DNA of 64,000 nucleotides from a virus (Duplodnaviria > Caudoviricetes): positions 2,059-66,058 of IMG/VR virus record IMGVR_UViG_2924769383_000001. One strand, 5' to 3'. The notes below the pieces were generated by a model. That model ran no database searches. It saw only the letters and a program-made list of their open reading frames with translations, and was not told where the DNA came from. The position numbers were made by a program, and so were the translations under genes. Below are positions 26,907 through 40,066 of the stretch, in pieces (position 1 is the first letter of the stretch; each line of letters opens with the position of its first letter).

Positions 26907-28172
26907 ATGGGCCTATTCGATAGATGGCTTGGCCGCCCTATCGACCTGAACGCGGATAGTGCGCCTTTCTGGCGCGGCTTCTTCGGATTAGGCACGACTA
27001 GCGGCGAGACGGTTACGTTTGATACAGCCATGCAGCTTGATGCTGTGTGGGCATGCGTGCGGCTGATTGGCAATTCGGTAAGGACGCTTCCATGCCTTGT
27101 TTACAAGGATGACGGCGTTACGGTCGACAAGGACAATCCGCTCTACGAAATCATGCACGACATGCCGAACCTGGACAATACGGCGTCCGAGTTTTGGGGC
27201 ATGGTGGCCCTTTGCCTGTGTCTGGATGGCAATTTCTTCGCAGAGAAGAAGATGTCTGGATCCAGACTGGTATCGCTGGAGCCGTTTCACCCTCTCTGCG
27301 TCGATGTAAAGCGCGACGAGCGCAACAACCGTTACTATGAAGTGACGGAGCGCATGAGTGCCAATGGCAAGAATGGCGGCAAGCGGCGCATAAACGAAGA
27401 TAGGATGTTCCACGTCCGCGGCGAGTTGCTTCCGGGCTGCGACCGAGGGCTTTCGCCTATCGGGATGGAGCGGAACATCATCGGCAATGCGCTTGCCGGT
27501 GAGAAGGCCGGGGCCAAGATTTACAAGAGCGGGTTGATCGCAACCACATTCTTGATGACAGACCAGAAGCTTGACGCGCCGCAGCGGAAGCAGATTTCTG
27601 AGACGCTGTCGAGCTTCATGGGCGCAGAGAAGGCAGGCGGAGTCGCTGTTCTTGAGGCCGGGTTCGAGCCTAAGGCAATAAGCATCAACCCAAAAGACGC
27701 ACAGATGCTCGAAACGCGCCAATACAGCGTTGAGCAAATTTGCCGTATCTTTGGCATCCCGCCTGTCATGATAGGCCACGCGGCCAATGGAACAACGACT
27801 TGGGGCAGCGGTATAGAGCAGTTGATTCTGCAGTTCACGAAGACGTGCCTGACGCCGCTGCTTAGGTCCATTGAATCGGCGGTTTACCGCGACTTGCTTG
27901 ATGTCAGGACGCGCAAAACAACGGTGGTGAAGTTTTCTATGGAAGGACTCTTGCGCGGCGATAGCACCGCAAGGGCTGCTTTCTTGTCCAAGATGGTGGA
28001 TTCAGGCATTTATACGCCGGACGAGGCCCGCGCTTACGAAAACAAGGCCGCTATGGATGGCGGAGACAAGCTTATCGTCAACGGCACAATGACGCGACTG
28101 GATAAGTTAGGCGAAGAGCCGGTTGTTCCGCCCGCCGCTAACCAAAACGCACCCACAACGCGCGCTGCTTAA
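26907..28172 (+). CDS. HK97-family portal protein
   Basis: AVWACVRLI, LCLDGNFF, GLSPI, QICRIFGIPP; ends AANQNAPTTRAA. Confidence 0.97.
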   Translation: MGLFDRWLGRPIDLNADSAPFWRGFFGLGTTSGETVTFDTAMQLDAVWACVRLIGNSVRTLPCLVYKDDGVTVDKDNPLYEIMHDMPNLDNTASEFWGMVALCLCLDGNFFAEKKMSGSRLVSLEPFHPLCVDVKRDERNNRYYEVTERMSANGKNGGKRRINEDRMFHVRGELLPGCDRGLSPIGMERNIIGNALAGEKAGAKIYKSGLIATTFLMTDQKLDAPQRKQISETLSSFMGAEKAGGVAVLEAGFEPKAISINPKDAQMLETRQYSVEQICRIFGIPPVMIGHAANGTTTWGSGIEQLILQFTKTCLTPLLRSIESAVYRDLLDVRTRKTTVVKFSMEGLLRGDSTARAAFLSKMVDSGIYTPDEARAYENKAAMDGGDKLIVNGTMTRLDKLGEEPVVPPAANQNAPTTRAA

Positions 28173-28181
28173 GGGAAAAAG

Positions 28182-29294
28182 ATGAAATTCAACCACCTTT
28201 TGGCGGCGTTTTGCGCCGAGCCATGGGCGATTCAGCGCGAGAAATTGGGCGTTTTGGCCGACATTCTCGTTGCGCGCGCCGAAGGCGACAAATTGTTTTC
28301 GACGGAGATGGCAACCGCCATTTCTGACGCTCGAGCCAAGGAAATCGCGGAAATCGACGGCAAAGTGGCCGTTATCCCGGTTTATGGCGTTCTGGCGCAG
28401 AAAATGGACATGATGTCCGCAATGTCGGGCGGAACTTCGTATGCTGGGCTGAAAAAGTCGCTGCATTCGGCGCTTTCGAACGAAGACGTCAAGGCTATTG
28501 TCCTTGATATCGACAGCCCTGGCGGTTCAGTGCCGGGCACCGAAGAGCTGGCGACCGAAATTCGCCGGATTCGCGGTGGTGACAAGCCGATTATTGCGCA
28601 GGTCAACAGCCTTGCGGCCAGTGCCGCGTACTGGATCGCGTCAAGTGCTGACGAGATTGTTGTTACGCCGTCTGGGCGAGCTGGATCCATCGGCGTCTAT
28701 ACGGCGCATGATGACGTTTCGGCTGCGCTGGAAAAGCGCGGTATCAAGCGAACCTACATTTCGGCCGGCGAGCACAAGGTCGAAGGCAATGAGACCGAGC
28801 CGCTGGGCAAGGACACGTTGGCTTTCATCCAAGATGGCGTCAATCGCTCATACGGGCGGTTTGTAGCGGCTGTAGCCGAAGGACGCGGCACGACTGTCGG
28901 CAAGGTCGAGGACGGCTTTGGGCAGGGCAGGGTGTTCTACGCAGAGCAGTTGCTAGATCGCGGCATGGTGGACGCCGTTGCCACGATGGATGAGACGCTG
29001 GAGCGCTTCGGCGCCGTCACGCAGCCCGCCTATGTGCGCCGCGTGAAAGCGGCTAACCAGGCTAGGGCCGGCGCGGCTGAAGTGCTGGCCGCAAAGATGG
29101 CTGCTGGAGACAAAATTACAATTCGCGAATTCGAGCATGGCATCAGGGGACTGATCGGCCTTTCGAAGTCGGAAGCAGAGCACGCTGCAAAGCTCTACTT
29201 CAAGGATAGTCAGGGGGAACCTGACGCAGATGCGGCAACTCTTGCCGCGCTAGACCGTCTGTTAGCGGCTGCGCGTTCTCCTCTGTTTAAATAA
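28182..29294 (+). CDS. S49 (SppA/ClpP-like) prohead protease
   Basis: LDIDSPGG, AASAAYWIAS, GSIGV. Confidence 0.95.
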   Translation: MKFNHLLAAFCAEPWAIQREKLGVLADILVARAEGDKLFSTEMATAISDARAKEIAEIDGKVAVIPVYGVLAQKMDMMSAMSGGTSYAGLKKSLHSALSNEDVKAIVLDIDSPGGSVPGTEELATEIRRIRGGDKPIIAQVNSLAASAAYWIASSADEIVVTPSGRAGSIGVYTAHDDVSAALEKRGIKRTYISAGEHKVEGNETEPLGKDTLAFIQDGVNRSYGRFVAAVAEGRGTTVGKVEDGFGQGRVFYAEQLLDRGMVDAVATMDETLERFGAVTQPAYVRRVKAANQARAGAAEVLAAKMAAGDKITIREFEHGIRGLIGLSKSEAEHAAKLYFKDSQGEPDADAATLAALDRLLAAARSPLFK

Positions 29295-29303
29295 GGAGCC
29301 ACT

Positions 29304-30527
29304 ATGGCTGACTCTAATCCGCTTGCCGACAAGATCGGCGAGCTTGGTACTTCGCTTGCCTCCATTAAGGAGCAGGTTGGTAATCTCGGCGCCGACTTCA
29401 CCGCTAAGCTCGCCGCGACCGGCGAAGTTTCCGCCGAACTGAAGGGTAAGGTCGACAAGGCTCTGACCGAGCTTGGTGAAGCCACCACTCGCGTTAGCGA
29501 GCTTGAGAAGCGCGCCGCCCGTGAGCGTGACGTTGTTGAGTCCGAAAGCATGGACCTCGGCGACCACCTCATTGCGTCTGAGGCGTTTAAGGGCACCGAC
29601 AAGTCGGGCGGCTGGCGCGGCGCCATTCGCGTTGGCGTTGAGCGTGCGGACATTACTTCCGGCAACACCACCGTTGGCGCAGGCCGCTCGGCTGGCACGT
29701 CGCTGGTTCCTGGCGCTCGTGTTCCAGGCATTGTCACGCCTCCGAATCGTCAGCTCACCATCCGCGACCTGCTTGCCCCCGGCCAGACCGTATCCAGCTC
29801 GGTTGAGTACGTGAAGGAAACGGGCTACACGAACAACGCCCGCCCTGTGACTGAAGGCACCACCAAGCCTAAGTCGGACCTGACCTTCAACCTGGTCACC
29901 ACTCCGGTGCGCACGATTGCCCATATCTTCAAGGCTTCGCGCCAGATCATGGACGATGCGCCGGCCCTGGCCAGCTACATCAACGCTCGTGGCACGTATG
30001 GGCTGAAGTTTGTCGAAGAGACGCAGCTCCTGAACGGCAATGGCACTGGCCAGAACCTGAACGGCATTCTGCCGCAGGCTACTGCGTTCGCTCCTGCGTT
30101 CAATCCTACGGGCGAAACCGCAATCGATCGCGTGCGCCTCGCACTCCTTCAGGTCATCCTGGCTGAGTACCCGGCGAGCGGTATCGTGCTCAACCCGATT
30201 GATTGGGCGCGCATCGAACTGACCAAGGACAACGAGGGCCGCTACATTGTCGGCAACGCGCAGTCCCCGATCGGTCCGACGCTGTGGGGTCTGCCGGTTG
30301 TGCAGACGCAGGCGATGGCCGCGGGCGAGTTCCTGACTGGTGCGTTCAACCTGGCTGCTCAGATCTTCGACCGCATGGGCGTCGAGGTTCTTCTGTCGAC
30401 CGAGAACTCGGACGACTTCGAGAAGAACATGATGACTCTGCGCATCGAGGAGCGCCTTGCTCTTGCCGTGTATCGTCCAGAGGCGTTCGTGACCGGCGAT
30501 ATCGACACTATTACGACTGCGGCTTAA
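29304..30527 (+). CDS. HK97-fold major capsid protein
   Basis: N-terminal coiled-coil delta domain; TIRDLL, LWGLPVV, RIEERLALAVYRPEAF. Confidence 0.97.
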   Translation: MADSNPLADKIGELGTSLASIKEQVGNLGADFTAKLAATGEVSAELKGKVDKALTELGEATTRVSELEKRAARERDVVESESMDLGDHLIASEAFKGTDKSGGWRGAIRVGVERADITSGNTTVGAGRSAGTSLVPGARVPGIVTPPNRQLTIRDLLAPGQTVSSSVEYVKETGYTNNARPVTEGTTKPKSDLTFNLVTTPVRTIAHIFKASRQIMDDAPALASYINARGTYGLKFVEETQLLNGNGTGQNLNGILPQATAFAPAFNPTGETAIDRVRLALLQVILAEYPASGIVLNPIDWARIELTKDNEGRYIVGNAQSPIGPTLWGLPVVQTQAMAAGEFLTGAFNLAAQIFDRMGVEVLLSTENSDDFEKNMMTLRIEERLALAVYRPEAFVTGDIDTITTAA

Positions 30528-30535
30528 CGGCCAAA

Positions 30536-30557
30536 GGGGCGGCTTTCGGGCCGCCCC
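30536..30557 (+). terminator. Stable hairpin after capsid gene
   Basis: GGGGCGGC-TTTCGG-GCCGCCCC; U-tract weak. Confidence 0.6.
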
Positions 30558-30575
30558 ACCTTATCCGGAGCAATA

Positions 30576-30869
30576 ATGAGAATCCAAGCCCTGAAAACCC
30601 TTCTTGACGGCAACGTCACCACAAAGAAGGGCACTGTTTACGAGGAAGACGACTTCAAGGCGCGCGATCTCATTAACATGGGCTACGCGGTGCATTTGCC
30701 TGAGCCAGACGAATCTGTCGCGGCGCCATTGGTTGGCAAAGACAACGTGGATTTTCTTCTGCTCCAAGCTGGTGGCCACGTTGGCTTGGAGAAACCTGCA
30801 TCATCGTCGCAGGAGGACCAAGCGCGGCCGAAGCGGACCTACACGAAGCGCGCGGCAAGCACAAAGTAA
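30576..30869 (+). CDS. Small post-capsid protein (0-frame product)
   Basis: SD GGAG; KGTVYEEDDFKARDLINMGYA resembles small capsid-associated domains. Confidence 0.8.
   Translation: MRIQALKTLLDGNVTTKKGTVYEEDDFKARDLINMGYAVHLPEPDESVAAPLVGKDNVDFLLLQAGGHVGLEKPASSSQEDQARPKRTYTKRAASTK
30749..30791 (+). promoter_or_regulatory. Candidate -1 programmed frameshift signal
   Basis: In-frame G-GAT-TTT (30749-30755), 6-nt spacer, 8-bp stem CTCCAAGC/GCTTGGAG. Confidence 0.7.
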
Positions 30870-31396
30870 TAGTCGTAAACAACGGCTATCGGCTAGCGCC
30901 GTGGGCTGACGTTCTTTACGCCTGTGACTACGACTGGTGGGCACATAATGGCGGTCGGACTGATTTCGCCGGCCTACGAATTGGCGGCGATGTACGTGAC
31001 GGCAAATGGGGCGTTCGCCCCGTTAAGATCGACATGCGCCGGGATGAAATCCTTGTGCATAAGTTCGGGACCATTGGTTGCGGTGGCAATTCGGGGTTCC
31101 AGGCCCTAAACCTTGCCGTCCAATTCGGCAGCCGGAACATAATTCTGGTTGGGTACGACATGCATGACCGAGCCGGTGTCCATTGGCACGGGAAGCATGG
31201 CAGCGGGCTTAATAACCCGAGTCGCGCGAGTTTGGCGCGGTGGCGCGGTGTAATTGACGGCCAAGCGCCGATGCTGGAGCGCATGGGCGTGCGCGTGATT
31301 AACGCGAGTCCAGACAGTGCGCTTACGGCATACCCCAAGATGACATTTAGCGCCGCGCTTGCGGCATGTACGGAGCGCGCCAATGTCGTTGCTTGA
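30755..31396 (+). CDS. Maf/MptE-like (CstII/GT42-type fold) transferase domain, start-less, likely a -1 fusion
   Basis: Frame open from 30704 with no ATG/GTG/TTG before ETCIIVAGGPSA; VNNGYRLAPWADVLYACD, NSGFQALNLAVQFGSRNIILVGYDM. Confidence 0.75.
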   Translation, partial: SSAPSWWPRWLGETCIIVAGGPSAAEADLHEARGKHKVIVVNNGYRLAPWADVLYACDYDWWAHNGGRTDFAGLRIGGDVRDGKWGVRPVKIDMRRDEILVHKFGTIGCGGNSGFQALNLAVQFGSRNIILVGYDMHDRAGVHWHGKHGSGLNNPSRASLARWRGVIDGQAPMLERMGVRVINASPDSALTAYPKMTFSAALAACTERANVVA

Positions 31397-31742
31397 TATT
31401 GCCTTGGTGAAGAAGCACCTCCGCATCGACTTCGATGATGATGACGACACGATTTCCGCCTACCAGGCAGCGGCAGAGACCATCGTAACGGAATATGTTG
31501 ACCGCGCCGTCTATGCCGCTGGCGGCATGCCGGCCACTGGTGACGACGGAACGGCAATTGAGGTTACACCGGCTATTACGGCTGCGATATTGCTCCTTAT
31601 TGGCGACCTTTACGAAAGTCGTGAGGCGGATCCTGAAAGCAAGGGTGATGCTGTGCTGCCGCGTGCGGTCAGGGCGCTGCTTGCGCCGTACCGCGTGTGG
31701 CGCGTGCTAGATGAATGCACTTACGTGGAAGTTACGACGTGA
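31383..31742 (+). CDS. Head-tail connector (HK97 gp6-like)
   Basis: VKKHLRIDFDDDD...AILLLIGDLYESRE...LLAPYR. Confidence 0.92.
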   Translation: MSLLDIALVKKHLRIDFDDDDDTISAYQAAAETIVTEYVDRAVYAAGGMPATGDDGTAIEVTPAITAAILLLIGDLYESREADPESKGDAVLPRAVRALLAPYRVWRVLDECTYVEVTT

Positions 31743-32674
31743 CGATTGCCGAAAAGCGCCACCTCTTCATCCGCGGGATGCATGGCCTTGGCGACAACCT
31801 CCACCAGCGGGCGATCATTCGCCAACTGATGCCGCGCTTCGATGTCTATCTCGAGAGTTCATGGATTGCTCCGTATCATGATTTGATTGCGGGTGGCCTG
31901 AAGGTTCTGCACAAGCGCACCTCACTGCGGACCCAGGCCAAGAACGCCGACCGGGAGCGCAATCTGTTCTGGCGCGGCAGTGTCCCGATCGCACGGCAAA
32001 TGCAGATTTCCTACTCGCCTGACCTGGTGCGCGAGTGCGGTTCTGTCCTTGCCGCAATGTGTCGAACGGCGGATGTGGATTACGCGCGGGCGGATTTTCG
32101 CCTTCCAATTCCGGCAGAGTGGCGCGAGCGAGCCGACAGGCTTATTGACTTTTGGCAGCCAACCAAGCCGATCCTGATTTACAGGCCGCTCAATGAGCGG
32201 ACGGAATGGGGCGGTTGCCAGGCAAGAAATCCAGACTATGACGCTTATGCTTCGCTGTTTGCGTCGATCAGAGATCAGTTCTTCGTCGTGTCAGTTGCTG
32301 ACCTTGTTCCAAAAAAAGAGTGGATGGTCGGCCATCCTATCAAGGCTGATGTCGAATGCCACTCTGGCGAACTGGATTTCGAGACGTTGGTTGCGTTGGC
32401 ATCGCGTTCTGCCATGGTCTACTCCTCGCCGGGCTTTGCCGTGATTCTTGCGCAGGCTGTAGGCACTCCTGTCGCTTGTATATTCGGCGGCTATGAGGAC
32501 TCGACGTCCTTCGCCGGAGGCGCGCGCTATAGCCCGTATCTCGGCATTGACCCTATCAAGCCGTGCCAGTGTTTTAGCCACAAGCATGACTGCCAGAAGG
32601 AAATAGACATTGGCGCCGCAACCGAACTTCTACAATCCTTCGTCACTGCAAATACCGGCCGTCTCGCAGGATAG
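31739..32674 (+). CDS. Glycosyltransferase, GT9 (heptosyltransferase-like)
   Basis: GMHGLGDNL N-terminal motif; LVALASRSAMVYSSPGFAVILAQAVGTP..IFGG. Confidence 0.8.
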   Translation: MTIAEKRHLFIRGMHGLGDNLHQRAIIRQLMPRFDVYLESSWIAPYHDLIAGGLKVLHKRTSLRTQAKNADRERNLFWRGSVPIARQMQISYSPDLVRECGSVLAAMCRTADVDYARADFRLPIPAEWRERADRLIDFWQPTKPILIYRPLNERTEWGGCQARNPDYDAYASLFASIRDQFFVVSVADLVPKKEWMVGHPIKADVECHSGELDFETLVALASRSAMVYSSPGFAVILAQAVGTPVACIFGGYEDSTSFAGGARYSPYLGIDPIKPCQCFSHKHDCQKEIDIGAATELLQSFVTANTGRLAG

Positions 32675-33233
32675 TATTGGCGTGCAGCCAATCGACAAGA
32701 CTGGACTAAATACACGGTTCATGAACCCCGGTGAGTTGGAGGCCGCTGTTGCGTTAGCGCGCCTGGCTAAGCCGAAAGTCGTTGTTGAGTTCGGCGTCAG
32801 CGAGGGCCGCACCGCCAAGGCTTTGCTGCTCAACATTGACACAATAGAGCGCTACGTCGGCATTGACGTGCCGCAAGGATATGTCACAGACAAGGCTGTT
32901 CAGCGGCGGGAGGTGCCGCAACAACCGGCGCACTTCGCATTGGACGACCCGCGCTTCCGGCTTCTGATTGCGCGTCGTGGATCGCATGATTTGGCCACCG
33001 ACGATTTGCCCGAGTGCGACTTCGTGTTCATCGATGGCGATCACGGGCGCGCTGGCGTTACAAAGGATACGCTCCTGGCCACGCGCATCGTTCGTCCGGG
33101 CGGCATGATTGTTTGGCACGACTACCACCACCTCGGCAGCGTCGACGTTAGGGATGTGCTTGATGAGTATTACGACGCGGGCCGACCAATCCAGCACGTG
33201 GAGGGCACATGGCTGGCGTTCATGAGGGTGTAA
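32610..33233 (+). CDS. Class I SAM methyltransferase (Methyltransf_24-like)
   Basis: VVEFGVSEGRT, DFVFIDGDH, GGMIVWHDY. Confidence 0.9.
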   Translation: MAPQPNFYNPSSLQIPAVSQDSIGVQPIDKTGLNTRFMNPGELEAAVALARLAKPKVVVEFGVSEGRTAKALLLNIDTIERYVGIDVPQGYVTDKAVQRREVPQQPAHFALDDPRFRLLIARRGSHDLATDDLPECDFVFIDGDHGRAGVTKDTLLATRIVRPGGMIVWHDYHHLGSVDVRDVLDEYYDAGRPIQHVEGTWLAFMRV

Positions 33234-36246: not shown

Positions 36247-36585
36247 ATGGCGTTAGAGGTAAACGGCGCACGAGGGGAAGTCGCACTTACGGTGGGCGGC
36301 GTCGACCTCGTTATTGCGGCCACCATGGCCGGGCTTGCGGCTGTGTCTACAAGGCTTGAATGCAAGTCCATGGCTGATCTATTTCAACGCCTTTCTGGCG
36401 TTGAACCTGCCGCAACCACTGCAGCACTTGAGCTTCTTACGGTTCGTGGCGACAAGGCCGCAGCCGTAAGCAAGCTGAAGTTGAAGCACTTTAGGGCGTG
36501 TGCGGAGGCTATTAACGCAGCCCTCGCCCATCAGTTCATGGACGATGAGGGAAACGACGAAACCGCCAAACCAAAGGCGGGGTAA
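36247..36585 (+). CDS. Tail assembly chaperone G (GTA gp10-like)
   Basis: NGARGEVAL...LVIAATMAGLA motif. Confidence 0.85.
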   Translation: MALEVNGARGEVALTVGGVDLVIAATMAGLAAVSTRLECKSMADLFQRLSGVEPAATTAALELLTVRGDKAAAVSKLKLKHFRACAEAINAALAHQFMDDEGNDETAKPKAG

Positions 36586-37126: not shown

Positions 37127-40066
37127 ATGGCCGATAGAACCGACGACCTTCTTATTAGCGTCAGTACTGATCTCACTACCATAAAAAGACAACTTAAGCA
37201 ACTCGGTCAGGATGTAGGTACTGCAACCTCCGGAATCCAGAAGCAGTTCGAAGGTGCGGGGAGGGGCATCGACAAGTCGATGTCTTCGCTACAGGACACC
37301 ATCAATCGCGTGACTGGAATTGCCAGGCAGTCCGGCAAGGAGTGGGCGGGCGCTCTTGCGGCTCCGGCCAAGCAACTTGACGATCTTAGGCGCGCGTATG
37401 TTCCGGCCTATGACGCGGCCAGAACTCTTCAGGAGCAGCAGCAGGAACTTACCCGCGCGCTTAGTATAGGGGCGATTAGCCTCGAGGAGTACTCCGGGCA
37501 CCTAGACAAGCTCGCCATTAGATACGATGCAACTGTTGCAGCAGCGGCCAAGCTTAAGGCTGAGTACTCTTCACTGGCGGAGGCCGAAAGGCTCGCTGCT
37601 AGCTCAAGCGATGGGCAGCGTGATATCAATGCGCTTACGGGCGTTGGCGCCGGAACGGCCAAGAGCGCTAGAGACTCTGCCGCTCTGTTTGCAGCAGAGA
37701 TGGATCGTCTTGATACAATAGCGTCTCAAAAGGCTCGCCAGATTGGCGACACATTTGGGAGCGATCTTGAGCAACGTTTGGTCCCCGGAGTAAAGTCGGC
37801 GGCCCGAGATTCCGCAAGCGTTTTTGAGGCGGAGCTTTCTAAGCTTGATGAAATTGCGCGCCTGAAGTCGGCTCAGGTCGGCTCCAACTTCGCTGCCGAT
37901 CTAAATGCTTCATTCGGGATTGGAGCTAAGTCTGGCAGCGCTGCTGCATCCGCATCCGTTTTTGAAGAATCGGCGCGCGACATGGATGAGATGGCCAGGA
38001 AGGCCACTTATCTTAAGGCGCTTATCAATCCGCTGGCTGCTGCACAGGATAGATACAACGCTGAACTGGCGGAATACTCCGCCCTTGCAAGTCGCGGTGC
38101 ACTAACTACTGACGAGCTAGCGCAGGCGCAGACGATGGCGAAGGCCAAGTTTGACGCGACAACCGCAGCAATGCGGAACCAGGCCAAAACTCTTGGTCAC
38201 GGCGCCGGCAACTTCAACACAGCCAACATAGCGGCGCAGTTTCAGGATATCGGCGTCACCGCAGCTATGGGCATGAACCCTCTGCAGATTGCGCTTCAGC
38301 AGGGCACGCAGCTTTCAGCCGTACTCAGTACGATGGGTGGCACTAAGAACACAATCGCAGGTTTGGGTGCTGCGTTCGCGTCAATAGTTAGCCCGGTATC
38401 ACTGGTTACGATAGGCGTTGTCGGTCTAACTGCTGCTGCCATCGAATATTTCACGACCTTCGAGTCCGGCTCCAGTAAAAGCGAGGAGACACTAAAAACT
38501 GAAGCAGACCTCATTCAGAAGGTCGCGAGTCAGTGGGGGGTAGCTCTACCGGCCCTCAAAGCATATGCCGACGAGCAGGCCGGGCTAGCCGATCAGCAAG
38601 ACAAACTAAACGCCCTAGTCGCAGCCCGCGAGAACTCTGGCGCCCCCTTGCTGGAAGGCTTCACTGATGCCACAGCTGAGGTTGCCGACCTTCAGGACAA
38701 GCTAAACACACTTGGCGAAAATAGCGCGGCACAGCAATTGCGCGACAAGTTCGAGGAGTTGAAAAAAGAGGTCGGCGAAGGCACGGTAACACAACAGAGC
38801 TTCAATGACGTCATTGAACTAGCTAAGGCAACTTTTGCCGACGCGAAAATAAATGGCGACGGCTTCATAGCCATGCTCTCCAATCTAGCGGGCCGGGCGT
38901 CGGCGCTGATCCCCACCATGGCTTCGCTTGCAGGCGAGGTTGATAAAGTTTTCGGTGGCAGCGGTTCTCCTAATGGCAGGTCGGTACGCGGCAAAAAGAA
39001 TGGGTACGACCCAAGATTTGGTGAATTGCCGGACACGGCACCTACGCCAGACAAGGCTCCTAATCGTGAAGATCAGGGCGCTTATGAAGACAAAATTGCC
39101 GCACGCGCAGCCAAAGCCGCCAGCAAGGCGCCAGCCAAAACCGCTGATGATCGCTTCTTTGAAGACATTGAGGCGATCCGTCAGCGCACAGCAGCGCTCG
39201 CGCAAGAGCAGGCAATCATGGGCCTGTCCTTTGAGCAGCAGCAAAAGCGAAAAATCGCCTTTGATCTAGAAACTACGGCCCTAAAGCAGGTCCGCGAGGA
39301 GGCTCGTAAAAAAGGCGAGGCCGACTGGCAAAACGCGCAGTTGACGCCCGATCAAATTGCCAAGATCAACGCCGTTTCAGACGCCTACGCAAAGCAGGCC
39401 GACGAACTGCGCAAGGCGCAGGACATGCAAGACCTTCAGCGGGATGTGCTGAAGGGAACGTTTGACGACCTGCGTTCCGCCTTGGATGATGGCAAACTTG
39501 ATTGGCAGGATTTCGCCAAGATCGCCGAAGGCGCCTTGGACAAGATCATCGACAAGATCGAAAACGATCTCATCGACTCCATCATGCAGGCTAACGGCGC
39601 TGCCGGTGGTGGCGGTGGCATTCTGGGCGGCATCTTGGGACTGTTTGGTGGTGGATCGAGCAACGTCTTCCCTGGCGGCGGCGTACTCAACAGCACTGGC
39701 GGCCTCTACGCTGACGGCGGCTTTACCGGAGCGGGCGGTAAGAACCAGCCCGCAGGCATCGTTCACAAGGGCGAGTACGTCTTTGACCAGGACGCAGTGA
39801 AGCGCATTGGTGTCGGCAACTTGGCCATGCTTCAGCGCGGTTACGCCAATGGTGGGCTGGTTGGTGCTCCGAGCTTGCCGCGCATTCAGGCGCCGGCAAA
39901 TCAGAATGGTGCGCCAAACATCACCTTTGCGCCAACCATCAACATGCCAAACGCTCAGAAGGGCGCGGGGGAAGAGGTGACGCAGGCGCTGAAGAAGTTT
40001 GAGCGGGAGTTCACACCTCGCGTCTTGAAGTCCTTGCGGGACGCCAGAACGACAGGAATGATCTAA
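37127..40066 (+). CDS. Tape measure protein
   Basis: 979 aa helical; AQFQDIGVTAAMGMNPLQIALQQGTQL; YADGGFTG..VHKGEYV tail. Confidence 0.95.
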   Translation: MADRTDDLLISVSTDLTTIKRQLKQLGQDVGTATSGIQKQFEGAGRGIDKSMSSLQDTINRVTGIARQSGKEWAGALAAPAKQLDDLRRAYVPAYDAARTLQEQQQELTRALSIGAISLEEYSGHLDKLAIRYDATVAAAAKLKAEYSSLAEAERLAASSSDGQRDINALTGVGAGTAKSARDSAALFAAEMDRLDTIASQKARQIGDTFGSDLEQRLVPGVKSAARDSASVFEAELSKLDEIARLKSAQVGSNFAADLNASFGIGAKSGSAAASASVFEESARDMDEMARKATYLKALINPLAAAQDRYNAELAEYSALASRGALTTDELAQAQTMAKAKFDATTAAMRNQAKTLGHGAGNFNTANIAAQFQDIGVTAAMGMNPLQIALQQGTQLSAVLSTMGGTKNTIAGLGAAFASIVSPVSLVTIGVVGLTAAAIEYFTTFESGSSKSEETLKTEADLIQKVASQWGVALPALKAYADEQAGLADQQDKLNALVAARENSGAPLLEGFTDATAEVADLQDKLNTLGENSAAQQLRDKFEELKKEVGEGTVTQQSFNDVIELAKATFADAKINGDGFIAMLSNLAGRASALIPTMASLAGEVDKVFGGSGSPNGRSVRGKKNGYDPRFGELPDTAPTPDKAPNREDQGAYEDKIAARAAKAASKAPAKTADDRFFEDIEAIRQRTAALAQEQAIMGLSFEQQQKRKIAFDLETTALKQVREEARKKGEADWQNAQLTPDQIAKINAVSDAYAKQADELRKAQDMQDLQRDVLKGTFDDLRSALDDGKLDWQDFAKIAEGALDKIIDKIENDLIDSIMQANGAAGGGGGILGGILGLFGGGSSNVFPGGGVLNSTGGLYADGGFTGAGGKNQPAGIVHKGEYVFDQDAVKRIGVGNLAMLQRGYANGGLVGAPSLPRIQAPANQNGAPNITFAPTINMPNAQKGAGEEVTQALKKFEREFTPRVLKSLRDARTTGMI

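Follow-up and report, generated by a model that had tools for sequence, protein, structure and literature searches.

The complete genome of one rhizobial phage (66,058 bp with terminal repeats; IMG/VR record IMGVR_UViG_2924769383_000001) carries, inside a head module of the HK97 type and directly 3′ of the major capsid gene, a small open reading frame (ORF) that overlaps a transferase-like frame without a start codon. The window analysed here is the 64,000-nucleotide stretch that makes up most of this record (positions 2,059 to 66,058), and all coordinates for this phage are those of the window, with the features on its plus strand. The small ORF occupies frame 0 from 30576 to 30869, begins with ATG and encodes a predicted short product of 97 aa; a Shine-Dalgarno GGAG (30567-30570) lies 5 nt before its ATG, and GGAG-like motifs occupy this place in most relatives. 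The transferase frame, which ends at 31396, is -1 relative to the small ORF and is open from 30704, directly after the last -1-frame stop before the transferase domain, a TGA at 30701-30703; any shift of frame must fall 3′ of this TGA. From 30704 up to 31034 the -1 frame contains no ATG, GTG or TTG. This start-less part encodes the conserved N-terminus of the transferase family (APSWWPRWLGETCIIVAGGPS) and reads ...RGFSSAPSWWPRWLGETCIIVAGGPS, the conserved motif lying 75-90 codons upstream of the first in-frame ATG.

A shift could occur anywhere in an interval 19 codons wide. Within it, GGATTTT stands at 30749-30755 in the phase G_GAU_UUU and is followed, after a 6-nt spacer (CTTCTG), by a stem in which CTCCAAGC (30762-30769) pairs with GCTTGGAG (30784-30791). 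A sequence-only reading had singled out these same elements, namely a frame called as 31034-31396 that is open from 30704 without a start and has conserved coding upstream, and a heptamer followed after 6 nt by an 8-bp stem; its coordinates and motif were confirmed, and the heptamer, spacer and stem read as it described them. It is highly likely that the small ORF forms a single gene with the start-less domain, recoded by a programmed -1 ribosomal frameshift at G_GAU_UUU. The predicted products are then the 97-aa protein and a trans-frame protein of 60 + 213 = 273 aa, in agreement with the lengths proposed earlier, and the -1-frame part of the fusion (30755-31396) comprises 213 codons plus stop and encodes an MptE-like/GT42-like domain. 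Residues 1-42 of the small ORF make up a folded N-terminal domain (N-domain), residues 43-60 a linker, and residues 61-97 an out-of-frame reading of the transferase gene. The junction predicted after tandem slippage is ...NVDF/SSAPSWWPR... (junction peptide DNVDFSSAPSWWPR), and the tail peptide unique to the 97-aa product is LLLQAGGHVGLEK.

Arrangement and frame use among relatives

A search of a 5.8-billion-protein collection returned 873 relatives of the transferase domain, and in IMG/VR the enzyme has about 560 observed relatives. A set of 120 related loci, drawn from IMG/VR, GTDB genomes and metagenomes, was anchored on the motif W[WFY]P.W and duplicates were removed, which left 75 unique classified loci and 5 further loci that were ambiguous. 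Forty-nine of the classified loci are of the frameshift type (FS), with no ATG, GTG or TTG in the transferase frame within 25 codons of the motif and with an overlapping upstream small ORF, and 26 are standalone (SA), with an ordinary start just before the motif. In every FS locus (49/49) the transferase frame is -1, and among loci set aside for a variant motif there are at least 7 more distinct arrangements of the same type (L011, L028, L041, L050, L086, L099, L118 and L120). Given its recurrence in 49 independent loci, this arrangement of frames is more than chance.

Alignment of the relatives gives P.WWP.W.GETC.IVA.GPSA as the conserved N-terminus of the family, and standalone homologs of 205-220 aa place a Met start a few residues ahead of it. 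The sequence-only reading had allowed that homologs might use an in-frame start; the closest homologs have none. Likewise, its claim that annotation would miss the site was borne out, as the closest database proteins are all N-terminally truncated calls, including a 94%-identical protein of Mesorhizobium sp. NZP2298, which suggests that these truncated relatives share the same hidden-frame problem.

The two domains occur in four architectures. The small protein may be free after the capsid gene with no transferase, as in Sinorhizobium phage NV1.1.1 (L126; OP484858, 2770-2943), where a gene for a free 57-aa N-domain directly follows a closely related capsid gene; as this phage lacks the transferase, an independent role for the short product is probable. 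Alternatively, a connector gene may separate the gene for the small protein from that for the transferase (L019), the two may be fused in frame (L084 and the five proteins P0009-P0011, P0013 and P0033, of 247-258 aa), or they may be joined by -1 recoding. The N-terminus of these five proteins (M..KVL..FL.G...) resembles the small ORF of the window. In most SA loci (L070, L071 and L111, for example) a gp6-like connector precedes the transferase and overlaps it at an ATGA that combines stop and start, and the flank available for most of them showed no N-domain. Gene order thus varies with architecture, as the window transferase precedes the connector. Well-established frameshift genes also show such a mixture of split, fused and recoded forms.

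Substitutions were compared by codon position among six members of the subclade to which the window belongs. Over the first 25 codons of the small ORF the differences fall mostly on frame-0 third positions (182, vs 87 and 72), and in the 111 nt beyond the slip site they are concentrated at third positions of the -1 frame (230, vs 120 and 71). In this comparison of sequences, the selected frame is seen to switch from 0 to -1 across the slip site. Third positions of the -1 frame correspond to second positions of frame 0, and the zero-frame tail (residues 61-97) is therefore not selected in its own right.

These patterns bear on whether the gene is simply broken, a former in-frame fusion split by a mutation or an assembly indel in the T-run with the transferase left as a pseudogene. 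In-frame fusions do occur in nature, and the slip motif of the window is degenerate in comparison with that of a 94%-identical relative, but the same -1 break is found in at least 49 independent loci with different linkers and lengths. Moreover, the -1 frame runs for 213 codons without a stop and shows a third-position substitution bias within the clade, the family-invariant residues are kept intact in the window domain, and the 66-kb record represents a complete genome bearing terminal repeats. Such a broken gene is extremely unlikely.

The slip site and the proposed frameshift

Of the 49 FS loci, 41 carry an in-phase CCCT (zero frame NNC CCU) at a distance of 6-33 nt before the W[WFY]P.W motif, and none has CCCT in either of the other phases; the in-phase CCCT is present in 2 of the 26 SA loci (Fisher p = 9.5e-11 vs FS). 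The modal distance from CCCT to the motif is 21 nt, and GGATTTT in the window is likewise 21 nt upstream of the WWPRW codons. Full heptamers are common among the FS loci (CCCTTTC in 6, CCCTTTT in 3 and CCCTTTA in 3), and in others C_CCU is followed by ACG, UCG or UCC. In the subclade of the window the aligned site reads CCCTTTT in L001 (94% identical), CCCTTTC in L002 and L030, CCCTACG in L041, GCCTTTT in L003, GGCTTTT in L042 and GGATTTT in the window, such that the three members without C_CCU (L003, L042 and the window) all retain U_UUU. Conservation of the heptamer, which the sequence-only reading had put forward as a check, therefore held in part: an in-phase slippery site is found at the homologous position, but it is mostly C_CCU_UUY or C_CCU_NNN and not GGAUUUU.

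Loci of the C_CCU_UCN subclass (for example L033, L040, L053, L058, L068 and L088) also have a conserved GAGGCNGCCAAG within an otherwise variable linker, approximately 24-27 nt ahead of the slip site; it often takes the Shine-Dalgarno-like form AAGGAGGC. This element could be an upstream stimulator, or merely a conserved EAAK peptide.

In several relatives the position of the shift is narrowly confined. The -1 frame opens 3-5 codons before the Phe codon in L055, L052, L056, L026, L004 and L001 (3 codons in L055, L052 and L026), and no near-cognate start lies in those 3-5 codons. The same frameshift arrangement is present in a deposited phage genome, that of Tetraselmis viridis virus S20 (L121; NC_020840, 2097-3253), in which the -1 frame reads TGA TGA TGA TGA CCC TTT GGG; because four -1-frame stops abut CCC TTT, the shift in S20 is possible only at C_CCU_UUG. 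GenBank annotates S20 with a 188-aa 'hypothetical protein' and, after it, an 'alpha-2,3-sialyltransferase' that is truncated, and further downstream in that genome lie a second sialyltransferase-like gene, a glycosyltransferase and a methyltransferase.

The frameshift would be dispensable if the transferase were translated alone, from a non-canonical or internal start (ATT at 30728 or ATC at 30800) or by termination and reinitiation. ATT 30728 has neither a Shine-Dalgarno sequence nor a counterpart in relatives. ATC 30800 is in frame, has a GGAG (30788-30791) 8 nt before it and encodes a residue near which the PHROG profile begins; a start there would, however, lose the W-W-P-x-W-x-G-E-T-C motif that is present in standalone homologs. 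Only 0-5 codons of open -1 frame precede the slip site in S20, L055, L052, L026 and L001, with no near-cognate start among them, and reinitiation cannot supply the conserved N-terminus, because the zero-frame stop lies approximately 115 nt downstream of it. Separate translation of the transferase is very unlikely.

The motifs used by the family are recognised -1 motifs, given that the ranking established in Escherichia coli includes C_CC.U_UU.Y, U_UUU and C_CCU. In that organism H_HH.U_UU.Y heptamers, C_CC.U_UU.Y among them, are among the most efficient -1 motifs, and the active tetramers rank as A_AAG >> U_UUC > U_UUU > C_CCU = C_CCC > A_AAA, with tetramer frameshifting of 0.26-5.6% in the presence of a strong pseudoknot (PMC4066793). 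The window contains a Z_ZZN tetramer with cognate A-site re-pairing, U_UUU at 30752-30755, in phase. G_GAU_UUU as a whole has been documented to work as a -1 site in one plant RNA virus, pea enation mosaic virus (PEMV; PMC5009743), an example that agrees with the earlier statement that GGAUUUU works as a -1 signal in RNA viruses.

The proposal that a hidden -1 frameshift fuses a small post-capsid protein to a start-less transferase domain is thus supported by at least 49 related loci, an in-phase slippery site, natural fusions, and stops that leave no start. As judged from sequence comparison, the frameshift is real at the level of the family and is very probably used in this phage. Ribosomes would start at the ATG at 30576, and the majority would terminate at 30869 and yield the 97-aa protein. 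At G_GAU_UUU (30749-30755) a fraction would slip back by one base, chiefly as tRNA-Phe re-pairs from UUU to UUU, and the hairpin 6 nt downstream may assist the slip; we infer the exact tRNA events, and likewise the efficiency of slippage, from the motif. The slipped ribosomes would read the -1 frame to 31396 and produce the 273-aa N-domain, linker and Maf-like domain. The N-domain might target the enzyme to the head, where the enzyme might glycosylate a virion protein; a capsid-binding role of the N-domain and a low stoichiometry of the fusion, as the sequence-only reading proposed, are putative.

Several results weigh against this account. The heptamer of the window is degenerate, and is not a canonical X_XXY_YYZ, since GGA is not XXX; its P-site half re-pairs poorly (GAU to GGA) and only U_UUU re-pairs. 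In many relatives the codon after C_CCU is non-slippery (ACG, UCG), which implies single-tRNA slippage, and this amounts to at most a few percent in E. coli assays. The 75-nt downstream fold in the window is not exceptional (z = -0.82), as 45 of 200 shuffles fold as well, and the stem is not conserved across 48 FS loci (65.4% vs 64.3% in shuffles). Because only the tetramer half of the heptamer is intact, efficiency is probably low and may be very low; frameshifting in the window phage is likely, yet probably inefficient.

The downstream stem is real and suitably spaced from the slip site, with weak statistical support. RNAfold extends the stem to 13 bp, including G-U pairs (arms 30762-30774 and 30779-30791, loop GCCA), and the resulting hairpin, at 30762-30791, belongs to the minimum free energy (MFE) fold, with a local 47-nt MFE of -16.9 kcal/mol; it overlaps the codons for APSWWPRWLGE. 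Of the stem cells in the 7-member subclade, 83.5% are paired, vs 80.6% in shuffles, and 57 of 500 shuffles pair as many. Three pairs in the subclade show double changes, for example from U-A to G-C through synonymous changes in Leu and Gly codons, and the observed covariation score is reached by 38 of 500 shuffles. RNAalifold returned no consensus structure over the 48 FS loci. FS loci fold modestly better locally than SA loci (-17.3 vs -14.2 kcal/mol, p = 0.001), and the G+C content of FS loci is also higher. Conservation of the stem in related phages, a further check named by the sequence-only reading, is thus weakly present in the subclade of the window and absent across the family. It is plausible that the hairpin is a local stimulator of slippage, its part in the signal being putative.

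The two frames might also be joined in another way, by a P-site-only slip at a neighbouring codon, by a shift elsewhere between 30704 and approximately 30760, or by transcriptional slippage on the T4 run. The 19-codon width of the interval leaves room for this, and many relatives apparently use a single-tRNA C_CCU slip. Against it, GGATTTT is the sole in-phase motif in the interval that allows A-site re-pairing, and it stands exactly at the modal position of the family. The tracts on which RNA polymerase is known to slip are far longer than four T. A different junction is quite unlikely.

The small protein and its proposed enzyme-like extension

The N-domain of approximately 42 aa is built of four short strands, a helix and a strand, and an AlphaFold2 model of the domain folded alone reached a pLDDT of 74 (82-88 over residues 1-40). 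PHROG 2616/5463 match residues 1-47 of the small ORF. The window's own N-domain had no match in Pfam at E <= 0.1; among the aligned relatives, 12 of 30 matched DUF7302 (best 1.5e-5) and 5 of 30 matched DUF7210. Matches of the N-domain in BFVD are small uncharacterised phage proteins. From these profile matches, the N-domain probably belongs with the DUF7302/DUF7210-like small proteins of phage head modules. A profile search for longer proteins with the N-domain found none, which is weak evidence given word crowding.

The best fold matches of the N-domain are the N-domain of bL9 and the B-domain of GINS (Z 5-6.3), with weaker matches to the C-domain of lambda gpFI (2lsm, Z 3.9) and to Bacillus subtilis YqbF (2hjq, Z 3.7). 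In lambda the gene next downstream of the capsid gene encodes gpFI, which binds the major head protein. The likeness to gpFI serves as a lead only, and capsid binding by the N-domain is putative. The literature searched yielded nothing relevant on DUF7302/DUF7210 or on gpFI/YqbF.

For the extension, the window domain matches phrog_4603 at 1.3e-45, a PHROG labelled 'alpha-2,3-sialyltransferase', and scores 22.4 bits against PF01973 (MptE-like), below the gathering cut-off of 34.6; many homologs carry precomputed PF01973 matches. No NCBIfam family matched, and a profile search of the PDB by sequence gave no match at E <= 1. Distant homologs include PmgP of phage P1 and ORF010 of Pseudomonas phage PAJU2, a 'structural protein' according to its depositors. 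An AlphaFold2 model of the natural fusion P0009, which is 59% identical to the window, has a pLDDT of 94 and a pTM of 0.86. Structurally this model comes closest to the Maf flagellin glycosyltransferase 5mu5 (Z 14.8, rmsd 3.0, 179 residues), followed by MptE HPPK (8sd5, Z 11.6), Cst-I (2p56, Z 11.2) and eukaryotic sialyltransferases, and Foldseek matched the same model to CstII at E = 6e-4. In the P0009 model, the extension shares the fold of Maf flagellin glycosyltransferase. It would thus appear to be an enzyme domain of the glycosyltransferase type, Maf-like, with putative activity.

A broader proposal, which we regard as speculative and rather improbable, is that the DUF7302/gpFI-like N-domain is a procapsid-binding module, and that a tunable -1 frameshift lets phages of alphaproteobacteria place a fixed, sub-stoichiometric number of Maf-like protein glycosyltransferase molecules on assembling heads, where the enzyme would O-glycosylate capsid proteins, possibly with nonulosonic acids. 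Were this so, evolution would use the slip motif as a dial (full C_CCU_UUY, C_CCU alone, U_UUU alone), and the separate, recoded and in-frame fused forms would constitute one enzyme-delivery system.

Known recoding systems and neighbouring features

The literature searched contained no description of this transferase frameshift. The finding is a further case of a known class, the programmed frameshifts of phages, and is distinguished by its enzyme-like extension and by the graded series of slip motifs. A close parallel is the tail chaperone G/GT of lambda-like phages, likewise a conserved -1 programmed frameshift in a structural operon that gives a short and a C-terminally extended product, and likewise with homologs that are fused or split. 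The genes and their function differ, however: the window case lies in the head module directly after the major capsid gene, its extension is an enzyme-like domain of approximately 210 aa and not a chaperone domain, and its family uses C_CCU_UUY or U_UUU in place of G_GGA_AAG. The tail-chaperone site is also present in this phage (36247-36788), in a G-like ORF (36247-36585) with a canonical G_GGA_AAC at 36549-36555 and a -1 frame open to approximately 36788, just ahead of the tape-measure gene (37127-40066). The head-module site is thus a second recoding site beyond the usual one, as had been claimed.

Phage T7 10A/10B and the major head protein of Lactobacillus phage A2 (PMC355979, as cited in PMC10885494) similarly extend a fraction of a head-associated protein at its C-terminus by recoding in the head module. 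In both phages it is the major capsid protein itself that is extended, whereas the window has a separate small protein with a glycosyltransferase-like extension. The PEMV site has the same heptamer in the same phase and is followed by a 3′ element (PMC5009743), but sites of this type serve eukaryotic ribosomes and viral polymerase genes, and in E. coli only the U_UUU tetramer would be expected to be active (PMC4066793). The OrfA-OrfAB pairs of IS3/IS911 are bacterial -1 programmed frameshifts that use heptamers or Z_ZZN tetramers with hairpins or pseudoknots, and in them too a small binding protein gains an enzyme domain, in a ratio set by the frequency of slippage; they are transposases, however, mostly with A_AAA_AAG, and have no homology to the window proteins.

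With respect to the protein parts, Maf (5mu5) is the best structural match of the extension among Maf, the GT42 enzymes CstI/CstII and MptE, but sequence identity is approximately 14% and the flanking domains of Maf are absent from the extension. The small gene shares the position of lambda FI in the familiar lambda order, between the major capsid gene, which it follows directly, and the gene for the head-tail connector. The N-domain is a small beta-alpha fold with weak matches to gpFI and YqbF, with no sequence similarity to either.

Conserved recoding sites in phages are few, and the tail chaperone G/GT is the only one that is routinely annotated; the head-module site represents a second, widespread and previously unannotated one. 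The cost of missing it is visible in Mesorhizobium sp. NZP2298 and S20, which carry truncated 'hypothetical' or 'sialyltransferase' calls together with an over-long small ORF. The split, recoded and fused forms, together with the series of slip motifs, provide natural material on the tuning of frameshift efficiency in bacteria outside E. coli. More broadly, the physical link of a Maf-like glycosyltransferase to a head-module protein makes glycosylation of the virion in these phages directly testable.

Upstream of the junction the head module comprises a portal gene (26907-28172), an S49 protease gene (28182-29294) and the major capsid gene (29304-30527, stop codon 30525-30527). Read directly from the sequence, an all-GC 8-bp hairpin without a T-run, GGGGCGGC / GCCGCCCC with the loop TTTCGG, stands at 30536-30557 between the capsid gene and the small ORF, and apparently the same element occurs at the same place in close relatives. 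The hairpin may reduce read-through or make the transcript more stable before the small ORF, and it may set the ratio of capsid to downstream gene expression.

Downstream, the gp6-like head-tail connector (31383-31742; PF05135, phrog_40) begins at an ATG at 31383 and overlaps the end of the transferase by 14 nt. It is followed in the region 31715-33233 by a phrog_6804 protein (319 aa, function unassigned) and then a methyltransferase-like ORF, and the trio of transferase, uncharacterised protein and methyltransferase also occurs in PAJU2 and S20. A second recoding event at the 65-nt ORF overlap 32610/32674 was considered and rejected: a normal ATG at 32721 suits the methyltransferase, and the overlap is therefore only apparent.

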